From Candidatus Aenigmatarchaeota archaeon (GTDB taxonomy: Archaea; Aenigmatarchaeota; Aenigmatarchaeia; GW2011-AR5), in NCBI GenBank assembly GCA_016187335.1, contig JACPJW010000001.1, forward strand, positions 512,001 through 576,000: a DNA stretch of 64,000 bases. Direction: 5' to 3'. The notes under the pieces are model-generated. The model was not told the origin of the DNA, did no database searches, and saw only the letters and a program-made list of their open reading frames with translations. Made by a program: the position numbers and the translations under genes. Of this stretch, positions 8,155 through 42,930 are shown piece by piece (the first letter of the stretch is position 1; each line of letters starts with the position of its first letter).

Positions 8155-8226
8155 TTATCCTCTTCTTTTCTCAGCTTCGTCTATCGATTATTCTTTCAAT
8201 CGATACATTCCTTTTCTGTTTATGAT

Positions 8227-8304
8227 AATATTTTTCTTTCCGTTAACGCTTTCTAATATTTTCTTTTCCGCGAACGCTTTTCTTTTCAAAAGAAAAGGGT
8301 TCTA
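8227..8304 (-). repeat. Type B hairpin module starting at the carS stop codon, with a tandem duplicate of its right arm
   Basis: TAGAAC-C-CTTTTCT-loop-AGAAAAG-C-GTTC-GCGGAAAA, then a second AAAGCGTTAACGGAAAGAAAAATATTA. Confidence 0.8.
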
Positions 8305-8817
8305 CCACGGGTGCTTTTTCAGCTTCAGTATGTAGGCTACGTTGTTGGTTGCCCAATGCACGACAGGCGTCATGATAAAGAGGAGAATAATCATGCTTAT
8401 TTCAGGCCTGTAAGCCGGCGAAGAAATAATCAAAGCCGCTATAAGGAATGTAAGCTGGTCAAACAGCGGAAAGTGCTGTCCCCTGGGTATCCCGAATCTC
8501 CTTTTTATGAAAGACCCCCCCACATCCCCGATAAGTGCGCCTGCGCTTAATAACAGAACCAGAGTTAAATTCAGTTTCACGAGATTAAGGTTTGCCGGCA
8601 GGTAATCCTGTGCGTATATCTGCGCCAGTCCGAACAAGGTCCCTATCGCGATGCCGCCGAACGTGCCTTCCCACGTCTTTCCGTCGCCCAAAAGCCTGTT
8701 TTTGCCCAGCCTCCTGCCGAAGTCCAGCGGCCTCTTGCCCTTGAGGAGAACCGGCGAGGCATTGGCTATGTAGGCAGGAGCTATGAACCACAAGGACTGC
8801 AAAATAAGCGAGAACAT
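8302..8817 (-). CDS. carS: CDP-archaeol synthase CarS (DUF46)
   Basis: PAYIANASPV, PLDFG, LGDGKTWEG, GD..GSFIKRR..I.RG, DQL.F, LKLKKHPW. Confidence 0.93.
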   Translation of the reverse strand: MFSLILQSLWFIAPAYIANASPVLLKGKRPLDFGRRLGKNRLLGDGKTWEGTFGGIAIGTLFGLAQIYAQDYLPANLNLVKLNLTLVLLLSAGALIGDVGGSFIKRRFGIPRGQHFPLFDQLTFLIAALIISSPAYRPEISMIILLFIMTPVVHWATNNVAYILKLKKHPW

Positions 8818-10057: not shown

Positions 10058-10718
10058 AAGCGGCCGAGGCTTTTATGTAGAAACTTACAATGCCCAGCCA
10101 TCCCATCTTTCCTATTCTTCTTGAAGAGGTGCGCACCTTTATGTCGTGGAAAAAGACGAAGCGCCTGTGCTTGTGCATCCTTTTCGCCAGCTCGTGGTCC
10201 TCGTTTGTTTTGAGAGCGGGATTGAAGCCGCCTACGGCGTGGAAGTGCTCTTTCCTGTAAATGAAGCAGCTGCCGGCTGTCATCGGCATCCCTGCTTTTG
10301 TCAGAAGGCGCGGTATGTAATTTATCCAGTCATAGATTTTTCTTGTGTACGGCCCGCCGTCGTAGCATTCCAGGACGCATACGCCGCCGCCAATGTCCCT
10401 GCTGGAAAATTTTTTCTCTATCTTGTCCAGAAAGTTTTTGTCAAAGCGCACATCGGCATCGGCAAAGATAAGTATGCCGCCTTGTGCGCATTCCGCTCCG
10501 GTGTTGCGGGCAAGGCCGATGCCTTTCCTTGGTTCCTGGACAAGCAATCCGTGCTTTTCAGCTATCCTGTGAGTTCCGTCTTTGCTCAGGGTGTCAACAA
10601 CTATTATTTCGTAATCGCTGCGCCGCTGGTTCTTTATGGATTTTATACATTCCTCTAAATAGCTCTCTTCGTTCCGCGTAGGGATGATGAACGAAAATTT
10701 CGGTTTCATGTTTTTCAT
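10008..10718 (-). CDS. Family 2 glycosyltransferase (true start 10718 or 10709; the called extension runs through the tRNA)
   Basis: IIPTRNEE, VVDTLSKDGT, ARNTGA, FADAD, NED motifs. Confidence 0.9.
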   Translation of the reverse strand: MKNMKPKFSFIIPTRNEESYLEECIKSIKNQRRSDYEIIVVDTLSKDGTHRIAEKHGLLVQEPRKGIGLARNTGAECAQGGILIFADADVRFDKNFLDKIEKKFSSRDIGGGVCVLECYDGGPYTRKIYDWINYIPRLLTKAGMPMTAGSCFIYRKEHFHAVGGFNPALKTNEDHELAKRMHKHRRFVFFHDIKVRTSSRRIGKMGWLGIVSFYIKASAAFMLKGGALKQGYPDYD

Positions 10719-10720
10719 AG

Positions 10721-10887
10721 TGCCCCCAGCGGGATTCGAACCCACGTCACGAGCTTGTTGCTTTTCCGTAGACGCTTTTGCGAAAGCAAAAGGGTCTCCG
10801 CAAGCTCGCATTCTCTTCGGATAAATTGTTATCCGAGACCTCGGAAATCTCTGATTTCCGCAGATGTCCAGGCTAAACTATAGGGGC
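10721..10887 (-). tRNA. tRNA-Arg(GCG) with two insertions: D-loop (~10815-10865, 51 nt) and canonical 37/38 intron (10756-10797, 42 nt); CCA not encoded
   Basis: Removing both inserts gives GCCCCTA TA GTTT AGCCTGGACA GAAT G CGAGC TTGCGGA GCTCG TGAC GTGGG TTCGAAT CCCGC TGGGGGC A, a complete cloverleaf. The 37/38 intron has central helix TTGC/GCAA with 3-nt bulges GGA and CAA. Confidence 0.92.
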
Positions 10888-10952
10888 AAAATTTAATATT
10901 TAATGCATCTCAAAACAACCTTTTAAATCATTTATGTGCAATTAGCGTAGTG

Positions 10953-10981
10953 GAAACTTTTCAGAAAAGTTTCATCAAAAC
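10953..10981 (+). repeat. Type A hairpin module nested in an ATTTATGT/ACATAAAT stem
   Basis: GAAACTTTT-CAG-AAAAGTTTC-ATCAAAAC. Confidence 0.8.
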
Positions 10982-11002
10982 GACATAAATGAGGTTATGA
11001 TT

Positions 11003-11161
11003 ATGAAGTGCATATCGTGCCACAAGAATCTTTTGTCTGAAGACGATTTCACGAAATTCAGCTGCCCATCGTGCGGCGGCGAAGAAATCTTAAGGTGCGC
11101 AAACTGCCGCGTGAAAGGCGTCCTGTATCAATGCACAAAGTGCGACTTTGAGGGGCCTTAG
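11003..11161 (+). CDS. Small zinc-ribbon protein (DUF1610/HVO_2753 family), 52 aa, below ORF-track cutoff
   Basis: MKCISC...FSCPSCG...RCANCR...YQCTKCDFEGP; four CxxC motifs; conserved position upstream of EF-1beta. Confidence 0.92.
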   Translation: MKCISCHKNLLSEDDFTKFSCPSCGGEEILRCANCRVKGVLYQCTKCDFEGP

Positions 11162-12007: not shown

Positions 12008-13024
12008 ATGGGAATACAGATGACAAGCCTCGTCGAGGGCGAGGAAGCAACTATAGAGCAGTTCTTTGACAAGAAAATAGCCGTGGACGCTTACAACTGG
12101 ATTTACCAGTTTCTGAGCATTATCAGGCAGCCCGACGGCGAGCCCCTGAAGGACAGCAGGGGCAGGATTACTTCCCATCTGTCCGGACTGTTTTACAGGA
12201 CGATGAAGCTGATGGAAGCCGGCATAAAGCCCATATACGTTTTTGACGGCAAGCCTCCTGAGTTTAAGCGGGCTACGGCAGACCAGCGCCGTGACGTGCG
12301 GGCGGAAGCAGCGCGCGAATGGGAAGAGGCGCTGAAAAGAAAGGATTACGAGGCGGCGAGAAAATACGCGCAGCGCGCTGTCACCATAACCGGCGAAATC
12401 GTGGAGCAGTCAAAACGGCTTCTGGAGGCGATGGGCCTGCCGGCAGTGCAGGCGCCCAGCGAGGGGGAAGCTCTGTGCTCGCTTATGTGCAGGCGCAGCG
12501 ATGTGTACGCCGTCGCGACGCAGGACTACGATTCCCTGCTGTTCGGCGCAACTCGCCTTGTCCGCAACCTGTCAATTACAGGAAAGAAAAAGCGCGGCTC
12601 GGAATACATAACAATAAACCCGGAAATGCTCGTCCTGAATAAGGTGCTGGAGCAGTTGGAAATCACACAGGACCAGCTTATATTATTAGGCATCCTTATT
12701 GGCACGGACTACAACCCGGGCGGCGTTCCCGGCTACGGACCGAAAAAAGCACTGGAGCTTGTCAGGGAAAAGAAAACGCTGCATGCCGTGAAGGAAAGCG
12801 TCATCTGGGATTTTGACGTCGACATGGAGGATATCTTCGCTTTTTTCAAGAAGCCAGAGGATGCTGACTACGACATAACCTTCGGCAAACTCAGCGAGGA
12901 AAAAATCGTAAAGATGCTCTGCGACGAGCACGACTTCAGCGAGGAAAGAATCGTAAACGCCTTGAAGAAGTACAAAGAATCAAAAGGCGAAGGCCAGCGC
13001 TCGCTGGGCGGTTGGGTGAAATAG
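12008..13024 (+). CDS. fen: Flap endonuclease 1
   Basis: AVDAYNWIYQFLSIIRQPDG, APSEGEA, QDYDSLLFGA, GTDYNPGG, C-terminal PIP box QRSLGGW. Confidence 0.97.
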   Translation: MGIQMTSLVEGEEATIEQFFDKKIAVDAYNWIYQFLSIIRQPDGEPLKDSRGRITSHLSGLFYRTMKLMEAGIKPIYVFDGKPPEFKRATADQRRDVRAEAAREWEEALKRKDYEAARKYAQRAVTITGEIVEQSKRLLEAMGLPAVQAPSEGEALCSLMCRRSDVYAVATQDYDSLLFGATRLVRNLSITGKKKRGSEYITINPEMLVLNKVLEQLEITQDQLILLGILIGTDYNPGGVPGYGPKKALELVREKKTLHAVKESVIWDFDVDMEDIFAFFKKPEDADYDITFGKLSEEKIVKMLCDEHDFSEERIVNALKKYKESKGEGQRSLGGWVK

Positions 13025-13140
13025 ACCCTTTCAAACTTTTAGAAAAAGTTTGATTAAAACGGAAAGAGAAAGCGTCTGCGGAAATCTGCAAAGAGCAAAG
13101 CTCTTTGAGATGCCAGGAAGCTTTGCTTTCTGAGCAAGAA
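13022..13140 (+). repeat. Composite element: type A module inside a type B stem, followed by a type C double hairpin
   Basis: TAGAC-C-CTTTC[AAACTTTTAGAAAAAGTTTGATTAAAAC GGAAAGA]GAAAG-C-GTCTG-CGGAAA, then CAAAGAGC-AAA-GCTCTTTG AGATGC CAGGAAGC-TTT-GCTTTCTG. Confidence 0.85.
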
Positions 13141-13170
13141 GCATATTAAAAATTTAGAAATTTGCGAGAA

Positions 13171-13503
13171 TCAGACCGGGCAGCCGCATCCTCTCAGGCA
13201 GGCATCTTGCAATTCAGCGCCTGTAACGCCAGGGTATTTTTGCCCGCATATAACATCTAACCTTGTTGTTTCTCCGGGAGCTTTGTAATCCTTGACCTCT
13301 ACGTCATCTATCTTGGTTCTATCGCAGCTGTAAGCGCTCCTCAATGTCTGGCAGCCTTTTCCATAAGCCTGCTCCATCTGGATTGTTCCTGCGCCTGCGC
13401 CGAACTGGCTGCTGAACAAAGCCGCCGCCACAACAAGAACGAGCACGGCTATGGCCACGATGACTATGACATTGATAGGAAGTTCCAGCCCTTTTGAAGC
13501 CAT
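13171..13503 (-). CDS. Pilin-like protein with class III signal peptide
   Basis: MASKG|LELPINVIVIVAIAVLVLVV; Cys-rich C-terminus ending CGC. Confidence 0.8.
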   Translation of the reverse strand: MASKGLELPINVIVIVAIAVLVLVVAAALFSSQFGAGAGTIQMEQAYGKGCQTLRSAYSCDRTKIDDVEVKDYKAPGETTRLDVICGQKYPGVTGAELQDACLRGCGCPV

Positions 13504-42763: not shown

Positions 42764-42930
42764 TTTTGATGCAACTTTCTTTTGATCAAACTTTTCTGAA
42801 ATCTTCAGAGAACGAAGTTCTCTGAGATCCCGAAGAACTTTCGTTCTTTGAGGAAGTTTGAAAGTCGCTTTTCTTTCCGCAGGCGCTTTCTTCTGTTTTT
42901 GATAGAACTTTCTGAAAAGTTCTGGGACTA
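42764..42930 (-). repeat. Multiply nested hairpin element (A + B arm + A[A[C]])
   Basis: Minus strand AGAACTTTTCAGAAAGTTCT-ATCAAAAAC, AAAGCGCCTGCGGAAA, then GCGACTTTC[AAACTT{double hairpin}AAGTTTG-ATCAAAA]GAAAGTTGC-ATCAAAAAT. Confidence 0.85.

Follow-up and report, generated by a model that had tools for sequence, protein, structure and literature searches.

An interrupted tRNA-Arg(GCG) gene of an Aenigmatarchaeota archaeon and the relation of its two inserts to dispersed hairpin repeats

The tRNA genes of the Thermoproteales may carry several introns each, with relaxed splicing motifs, and similar introns can be found in unrelated tRNA genes (PMC4090602). The transposed introns of these genes, which are bounded by bulge-helix-bulge (BHB) motifs, were reported by Fujishima et al. 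(2010, as summarised in PMC4090602); the mechanism of archaeal tRNA intron transposition has been called unknown (PMC4090602), and a 2026 preprint states the route of intron arrival as open (10.64898/2026.10.13.758758). Disrupted tRNAs also occur in DPANN archaea (PMC3239211, PMC5829648), among them ARMAN-2, whose splicing endonuclease (EndA) is of the epsilon2 type (PMC3239211). In Caldiarchaeum subterraneum, the presence or absence of tRNA introns between close relatives was ascribed to mobile DNA (PMC3293823). Here we analyze a gene for tRNA-Arg(GCG), located at 10721..10887 on the minus strand of a 64,000-nt stretch (hereafter the window) from the genome of a Candidatus Aenigmatarchaeota archaeon, a member of the DPANN. 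The window corresponds to C2:512001-576000 of a two-contig assembly (1.01 Mb, 47% GC, rated 91% complete; G000); plain coordinates refer to the window and prefixed ones to contigs. The gene is split by two inserts, one in the D loop and one between positions 37 and 38 of the anticodon loop, and both have relatives lying free between genes.

A different point of comparison is offered by the short, structured, multicopy and non-coding modules of prokaryotes, such as REP/BIME, Correia and BOX/RUP elements and the archaeal miniature inverted-repeat transposable elements (MITEs), which are combined with and nested in one another and are mostly intergenic. Such repeats often lie behind genes, sometimes supply their stop codons, and differ in copy number from lineage to lineage. 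The reading that we favor, and hold to be reasonably probable, is that a working, single-copy tRNA-Arg(GCG) gene in a DPANN host of ~1 Mb is interrupted twice by dispersed MITE-like hairpin repeats, which would be removed by splicing.

Neither ARAGORN nor Rfam at its gathering threshold called any tRNA in the raw 64-kb window. Despite this, all the parts of a tRNA can be read on the minus strand at 10887..10721: an acceptor stem (GCCCCTA/TGGGGGC) followed by A73, a D stem (GTTT/GAAT), an anticodon stem (CGAGC/GCTCG) closing the loop TTGCGGA, and a T arm (GTGGG-TTCGAAT-CCCGC). When 10814-10864 and 10756-10797 were removed in silico from the 167-nt precursor region, ARAGORN recognized a tRNA-Arg(gcg) with a normal 74-nt cloverleaf. 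Exon 1 (10865..10887, minus, as are all parts of the gene) comprises the 5' strands of the acceptor and D stems and the D loop to A21, and its positions 8-23 are identical to those of the ortholog in a species of the same genus (G001). The D-loop insert follows at 10814..10864 (51 nt). Exon 2 (10798..10813), which is the same in the congener, holds the 3' strand of the D stem, position 26, the 5' strand of the anticodon stem and the loop through G37. After the 42-nt intron at 10756..10797, exon 3 (10721..10755) begins with A38 and provides the 3' strand of the anticodon stem, the variable loop, the T arm, the 3' acceptor strand and A73.

The genome seems to need this gene. Based on crude gene calls, CGC is the commonest CGN codon (10.9 per 1000) and, together with CGT (2.8), amounts to 13.7 codons per 1000, in agreement with the sequence-only reading, a reading of the window made beforehand without database searches, which had proposed a doubly interrupted tRNA-Arg(GCG) with undecayed exons in a genome where CGC is common. 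That reading had also named a second intact tRNA-Arg(GCG), in combination with a lack of mature spliced tRNA, as grounds for taking this one to be a pseudogene. A BLAST search with the locus found no second copy of its exons in the assembly, and a structure-aware scan (a YU-GCG/ACG-R arm, with a 37/38 intron of up to 260 nt allowed, plus an uninterrupted T arm, a design that misses copies with T-loop introns) found no other GCG or ACG anticodon arm with a T arm. A contig from an independent groundwater study of 2017 spans 10652-11111 with zero differences and keeps both inserts; the doubly interrupted allele is present in metagenomes from 2017 and 2020, and among those DNA contigs no insert-free allele was seen. 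No run listed as RNA contained this DNA. The undecayed exons, the lack of another detectable CGC/CGU decoder and the identical 2017 allele together suggest that the allele with both interruptions is the established form of a gene that seems to be essential, and that the gene is probably intact and functional.

The congener provides an empty site for the D-loop insert. Its tRNA-Arg gene (G001:C82:4540-4900) has an uninterrupted D loop (...GCCTGGACAGAATGCGAGC..., ...TAGTTTAGCCTGGACAGAATGCGAGCTTGCGG...), and the filled site GGACA[51 nt]GAAT and the empty site GGACAGAAT share at most one A. Since the 32 nt around the site are identical in both genomes, the insert is placed as exactly 51 nt between A21 and G22, the shared A leaving an ambiguity of 1 nt; the earlier length of 47 nt was wrong, as it omitted the leading TCTG. 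Two further orthologs, from G008 and G003, also lack the D-loop insert and have the 37/38 intron only. The empty site in the congener marks the insert as a recent, precise and one-way gain, for which the alignment gives no sign of a target duplication.

The insert consists of TCTG, an 8-bp hairpin, AGGTC, another 8-bp hairpin and AGA, and both hairpins are stable in the predicted fold. BLAST found no close copy of it. In structure, the insert resembles a family of double hairpins (family C). An alignment of 12 copies (A1), from which the insert was excluded, shows compensatory changes in nine of 21 consensus pairs, and the covariance model built from it (R1) matches 82 places in the genome when both strands are counted, or about 45 distinct loci by our count. 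Antisense to the tRNA, R1 gives the D-loop insert 37.1 bits, with an E of 2.2e-5 for the genome as a whole; in the orientation proposed earlier, the score is 24.4 bits. Judged by these scores and by the fold, the insert is a family C copy. Free copies in the window include a double hairpin directly after a family B copy (see below) at 13078..13142 (C2:525078-525142; minus strand 46.3 bits, plus strand 39.0 bits) and one at 42795..42860 (minus, 81.7 bits), the partner in the earlier comparison, that is nested in an AACTTT...AAGTTT stem. Other family C copies lie in an intron of the 23S gene and beside or inside several tRNA genes.

Several family C double hairpins have repeats on either side. 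Those at C2:8320-8385, C2:411943-412009 and C2:236586-236652 are flanked on both sides by an identical half of an AACTTTT-type hairpin (e.g. ATGAAACTTTTCTGATTCCGTTT before and after the copy at C2:8320), which looks like a target duplication or the copying of a repeated unit. The words AAACTTT/AAAGTTT and TTTGATC are six to seven times enriched in non-coding DNA, for example at 10953-10981 of the window. These words mark a third abundant hairpin family, of the form NNAACTTTT-loop-AAAAGTTNN with an ATCAAAA tail, which also forms intron bodies.

The 37/38 intron reads AGACCCTTTTGC, a loop, GCAAAAGCGTCT, an A and CGGAAAA, followed by GCAA-CA. The earlier claim of a good BHB core at this site was right for the 3' half of the motif, with the central helix (H, 4 bp, TTGC/GCAA) and the bulges (CA|A on the 3' side and GG|A on the 5' side), which the BHB scan found next to an outer helix h of 6 bp that extends the anticodon stem. 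What is absent is an inner helix directly against H (h' of 0 bp): the 5' bulge faces an 8-nt single-stranded tail, ACGGAAAA, that separates the central helix from the intron's own hairpin, AGAC-C-CTTTTGC / GCAAAAG-C-GTCT with a C-C mismatch. As scored by the scan, the site matches the relaxed hBH form. Relaxed hBH and HBh' sites are known substrates of broad-specificity archaeal endonucleases (PMC4090602). With BLAST the intron matches four places in the genome at 80-83% over about 43 nt (C2:74731, C2:692066, C2:717639 and C2:884282), and the one at C2:717639 is a T-loop intron. Introns more than 70% alike in distinct tRNA genes, as in the Thermoproteales, are hence present here; a copying specific to introns, from tRNA to tRNA, is not what we observe, as the modules are also found in rRNA genes, at stop codons and in spacers.

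By an exact motif match, the intron is a short-form copy of a second family (family B), whose unit is xyz-CCCTTT, a variable loop or nested hairpin, and AAAGCG-z'y'x'-N-CGGAAA. The motif AAGCG-N4-CGGAAA has five exact copies in the window and 52 in the genome; with one mismatch allowed, there are nine matches in the window against 2.5 expected, a number reached by none of 100 shuffles. We estimate about 40-50 family B copies in the genome. The triplet xyz pairs perfectly with z'y'x' in 35 of 44 copies, with at least 11 different triplets, so that the stem base appears to be under strong covariation with the C-C mismatch always kept. The likeness of the intron to 8264-8304 (minus) and 13022-13084 (plus), proposed from the sequence alone, was borne out by the excess of the motif. 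Within the window, one free copy (8263..8302, minus) includes in its stem base the TAG stop of the open reading frame (ORF) 8302..8817, and another (13022..13084, plus) starts on the TAG stop of ORF 12008..13024 and has an AACTTTT-type hairpin nested in its loop. A partial right arm with tail (AAGCGTTAACGGAAA) lies at 8237..8251 (minus), and a right arm with tail (AAGCGCCTGCGGAAA) at 42874..42888 (minus), in the spacer shared with the double hairpin at 42795..42860.

Across the genome, family B copies are mostly placed, as seen by eye, in D loops, anticodon loops and T loops of tRNA genes, with three more in the 16S gene and one in the 23S gene. Three tRNAs have closely similar copies at one shared T-loop position. 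Two T-loop copies, of a long form, make textbook hBHBh' introns: in T loops another right arm, a perfect one, comes after the unit, and the whole produces the motif at 59/60 (h of 5 bp, H of 4 bp and h' of 8 bp). The free spacer copies do not have the closing sequence complementary to an exon. Six copies begin on a TAG stop and one on a TGA, the frames ending on TAG being 77-827 codons long; the two comparison sites of the earlier reading, 8263-8302 (minus) and 13022-13084 (plus), are among these seven. Both inserts of tRNA-Arg are thus members of repeat families with free copies in intergenic DNA, as had been claimed, and the motif counts, the covariation and R1 agree on this point. No Rfam family matched the modules at gathering score in the window, and around the gene only chance-level hits were obtained.

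Further features of family B were noted in the genome. The fourth base of N4 in AAGCG-N4-CGGAAA is usually z, that is, the complement of the first base of N4, both genome-wide and in the relatives, and the resulting CG-z'..z-CG frame is often a perfect 8-bp palindrome (CGTGCACG, CGTCGACG, CGTTAACG, CGCCGGCG) that could be bound by a dimeric DNA-binding partner. A D-loop intron of family B at about C1:26030-26161 (minus) has its tail unit GAATGCACGGAAAGAAAAA in tandem at least three times. The copies at C2:578093-578122 and C2:205983-206022 lie inside long open-frame calls and may be introns of protein genes or artefacts of the crude gene calls. The 16S gene (C2:239678-242953) spans 3.3 kb in two Rfam pieces with a gap of about 1.2 kb between them, and two of its three copies are placed at the universally conserved 515 and 785-805 regions; the 23S gene (C2:208273-212555) spans 4.3 kb and contains a composite insert of both families at about 210365-210491. 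Readings of the B tail as a kink-turn, an H/ACA or C/D box or a triple helix were dropped because they fit the sequence poorly. The element GAAAATATTA, which often follows the tail, was dropped as a promoter in general, since the enriched spacer words are of the TTTAAATA type and two copies in the window lie between apparently convergent genes.

The modules of this gene turn over between close relatives. The 37/38 intron is present in all four orthologs examined (this genome, G001, G008 and G003). Its body is of family B in three genera, and the congener G001 has another module there, made up of an AACTTTT hairpin and an ATCAAAA tail. In G008 and G003 the xyz pair is CAG/CTG, against AGA/TCT here, a compensatory change of the stem. 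The congener's gene has three interruptions: a small one near position 9, the one at 37/38, and a canonical T-arm intron of 53 nt at 53/54, whose B-like variant body has the tail ACCAAAAG instead of ACGGAAAAG. On the evidence of these four orthologs, the 37/38 position is old and its body replaceable, and the other intron positions come and go between close relatives. The word exchange, used earlier for the relation with intergenic repeats, is too vague for a D-loop insert that is a one-way gain and for a 37/38 body that varies. At the stop of ORF 8302..8817, the family B copy is orthologous in the congener, with xyz = GAA/TTC in both and a nearly identical core. The copy on G001:C82 has an extra 36-nt hairpin in its loop, which is also found in G000 at about C2:132.8 kb and C2:821.4 kb, and in G000 the region 8171-8302 shows about 70 nt of additional tail units downstream. 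Modules are also nested in one another's loops.

Of 41 relatives, 25 have family B, as do 77 of 201 genomes in a wider sample of the phylum, and entire taxonomic families carry or lack it (21 of 23 genomes in f22, one of 42 in f18 and none of 12 in f14). A reversed-pattern control gave only eight matches in all 201 genomes, compared with 35 forward matches in G000 alone. Family C also occurs in 25 of the 41 relatives, in a pattern independent of family B: G004 has 32 matches to C and none to B, and G033 has 25 to B and none to C. G012, which is 97% complete, is without B, and G009 and G013 are without C.

Similarities between AT-rich hairpins may arise by chance, and one of our comparisons would fit that explanation. 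In the orientation first proposed, the alignment of the D-loop insert with 42802-42852 (minus) scores 6, a value reached by 17% of the hairpin-preserving controls, so that the specific alignment is at the level of the controls. In the opposite orientation it scores 11 (0.1% of controls). Against other members of the family, the insert reaches at best 22 and 21, one value for either orientation, and both lie above every control (300 of each kind, with maxima of 17 and 15). The likeness claimed earlier is therefore upheld for the family and not for that pairwise orientation. The module of family C is quasi-palindromic; for this reason the orientation of the insert stays ambiguous, but its family membership does not. 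Together with the detection of the insert by a model built without it, with motif counts far above those of shuffles and reversed patterns, and with the many states of the covarying stem base, these scores refute chance at the level of the families, and we give it a negligible probability.

Another explanation concerns the D-loop insert itself, which may not be removed at all; the gene would then be a pseudogene disabled not long ago, or would give rise to a tRNA whose D loop is greatly enlarged. An exhaustive scan and the predicted fold agree with the sequence-only reading that no convincing BHB can be built for the insert: no canonical or clearly relaxed motif, be it BHB, hBH or HBh', fits its limits. 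The sole outcome of the scan was a 12-nt mini-motif inside hairpin 2, rejected as it does not fit those limits, and by hand, too, no model of excision in two steps or of nested excision could be made to work. Its excision is accordingly assumed from the need for the tRNA. The youth of the insert, absent from the congener, would also suit a recent disablement. Yet the exons are undecayed, the surroundings of the site are identical in the congener, the gene is the only detectable decoder of CGC and CGU codons, and one allele was found in both 2017 and 2020. A second tRNA, at C2:256575-256822 (anticodon loop CTTACA by eye), has a family C module at the identical 21/22 site with matching ends (...GGTTA|TCTG, hairpin, AGATC, hairpin, CAGA|TGAC...), and in both tRNAs the 3' limit of the insert is an AGA that links the second hairpin to the strand of the D stem. 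An independent splice site requires a short linker between two helices (PMC4090602), and the AGA linker, with its two flanking helices, suggestively resembles such a site. The second hairpin of each of the two modules also deviates from the family consensus in its 3' strand, which complements the exon before the 5' limit over 4 bp (TGGA/TCCG in tRNA-Arg and TGGT/ACCA in the second tRNA); from these two cases, it is suggestive that the deviation serves this complementarity. On the whole, an insert that stays in the tRNA seems very improbable to us. The genome has one EndA ORF (202 aa, C2:410505-411113, minus), with the N-terminal PF02778 and the catalytic PF01974 domains; the ORF next to it, considered as a second subunit, resembles neither EndA nor any solved structure. 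In DPANN archaea, EndAs of the alpha4 type with an extra loop (L3) accompany many disrupted tRNAs (PMC5829648).

In our favored reading of a spliced tRNA with MITE-like inserts, the precursor would be transcribed with both of them, the single, putatively alpha-type endonuclease would cut at relaxed bulge-helix sites and RtcB would join the exons. The modules would be non-autonomous elements kept only where they are harmless, that is, in spacers behind stop codons, in the loops of other modules and in spliceable loops of tRNA and rRNA, and such a dispersed repeat could be the origin of a new tRNA intron or take over an existing one. Families B and C consist of many non-coding copies with a conserved, structured core. 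Several observations weigh against this reading, beginning with the missing BHB of the D-loop insert. No IS200/IS605 transposase was found in the 91% complete assembly (PF01797 gave only a fragment of 16.7 bits, below the cut-off, and PF07282 nothing; other transposase families were not searched), and no target-site duplication flanks the D-loop insert, for which reasons MITE-like describes a behavior and not a mechanism. The core of family B (CCCTTT, AAAGCG and CGGAAA) is invariant across the whole class; the genes flanking the orthologous stop-codon copy are only 71-78% identical, less than the spacer copy itself; and all seven stop-codon copies have the same orientation as their frame. An invariant core, a well-kept orthologous copy and co-oriented stop copies are expected of a functional element and not of junk.

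These last points are the strength of an alternative that we consider unlikely, namely that the modules are functional RNA or DNA elements (a protein-binding site, or a signal for 3'-end formation or processing) rather than selfish repeats, whose intron copies would scaffold the precursor for the endonuclease or yield abundant small or circular RNAs. It would account for a core shared by more than a third of the sampled genomes and nearly missing from the reversed control, for the conservation of the C-C mismatch and the CGGAAA tail, for stop-codon copies that all start on the stop, and for the usual identity of the fourth base of N4 with z in the CG-z'..z-CG frame. It does not sit well with near-complete relatives that have no B (G012 and G004) or no C (G009 and G013), with copy numbers from 0 to 35 or more that vary independently in the two families, or with modules that nest in loops, differ between congeners at one site and replace one another at 37/38; no Rfam family matches them either. 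Given the lack of an IS200/IS605 transposase, we rank a host-dependent, non-autonomous repeat first and a functional element second. Under a further, improbable reading, the modules would be a mobile element that lacks its own enzyme and spreads through the tRNA-splicing chemistry of the host: module RNAs, once excised and perhaps closed into circles, would insert again into exposed loops of RNA (the D, anticodon and T loops of tRNAs, loops of rRNAs and hairpin loops in 3' untranslated regions), before being converted back into DNA. Such a cycle would account for insertion in loops only, for the missing target duplication and transposase and for the class-wide invariant core and, if true, would make the modules a new type of mobile element and give archaeal introns a direct way to be born.

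The modules also affect how such genomes are assembled and annotated. Word depth at 8174-8360, 10792-10978 and 13036-13222 of the window is three to nine times that of the flanks, and in all four metagenome runs the contigs are broken or piled up where modules lie, which suggests that assemblies of such organisms tend to fragment at tRNA genes and spacers. Infernal and ARAGORN detect no more than about 14-22 tRNA genes in the whole genome, and most of these have long or multiple inserts. The calling of tRNAs by standard tools is thus incomplete here, and the full set needs manual work free of fixed motifs.

With the preferred reading of MITE-like repeats removed by splicing, this one essential tRNA gene would offer a dated and exactly delimited intron gain with a dispersed spacer repeat as its body, next to an old intron whose body was swapped for different modules in close relatives. 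As the D-loop interruption is absent from the sister species, it appears as a tRNA intron arising from a repeat, and the modules common to tRNA introns, rRNA introns and stop codons bear on the open question of how archaeal tRNA introns arrive. The locus also supplies concrete substrates on which the endonuclease could be assayed in vitro, together with filled and empty sites that could be compared within populations and between species. In our literature searches we found no description of archaeal tRNA intron bodies shared with spacer hairpin repeats or MITEs. What is new here is the anatomy of the tRNA-Arg gene, the placing of its D-loop insert in family C, the empty site in the congener, the replacement of the 37/38 body and the independent distributions of the two families.

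Compared with REP elements and MITEs, the modules differ in that the dated insertion has no target-site duplication, that no IS200/IS605-type transposase was found in the assembly, that the copies in tRNA and rRNA genes would be kept harmless by RNA splicing, and that the core is class-wide. The element of Caldiarchaeum is 1.8 kb long and encodes a recombinase, whereas the inserts described here are hairpins of 42-51 nt without coding capacity. Closer in host are the non-canonical introns of DPANN archaea, with which this genome shares the ultrasmall archaeon as host, the disruption of many tRNA genes at D, anticodon and T loops and the relaxed hBH-type site at 37/38; a look-up of terms in PMC5829648 and the abstract of PMC3239211 gave no description of intron bodies as dispersed repeats shared with spacers. 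The transposed introns of the Thermoproteales are alike in having several introns per tRNA, recent gains and, as proposed here, an excision that depends on the splicing endonuclease. In the present case, however, the shared modules are also found in spacers, at stop codons, in 16S and 23S rRNA genes and within one another. The host belongs to the DPANN and has one EndA gene, putatively of the alpha type, and the empty site of a congener fixes the limits of one gain.

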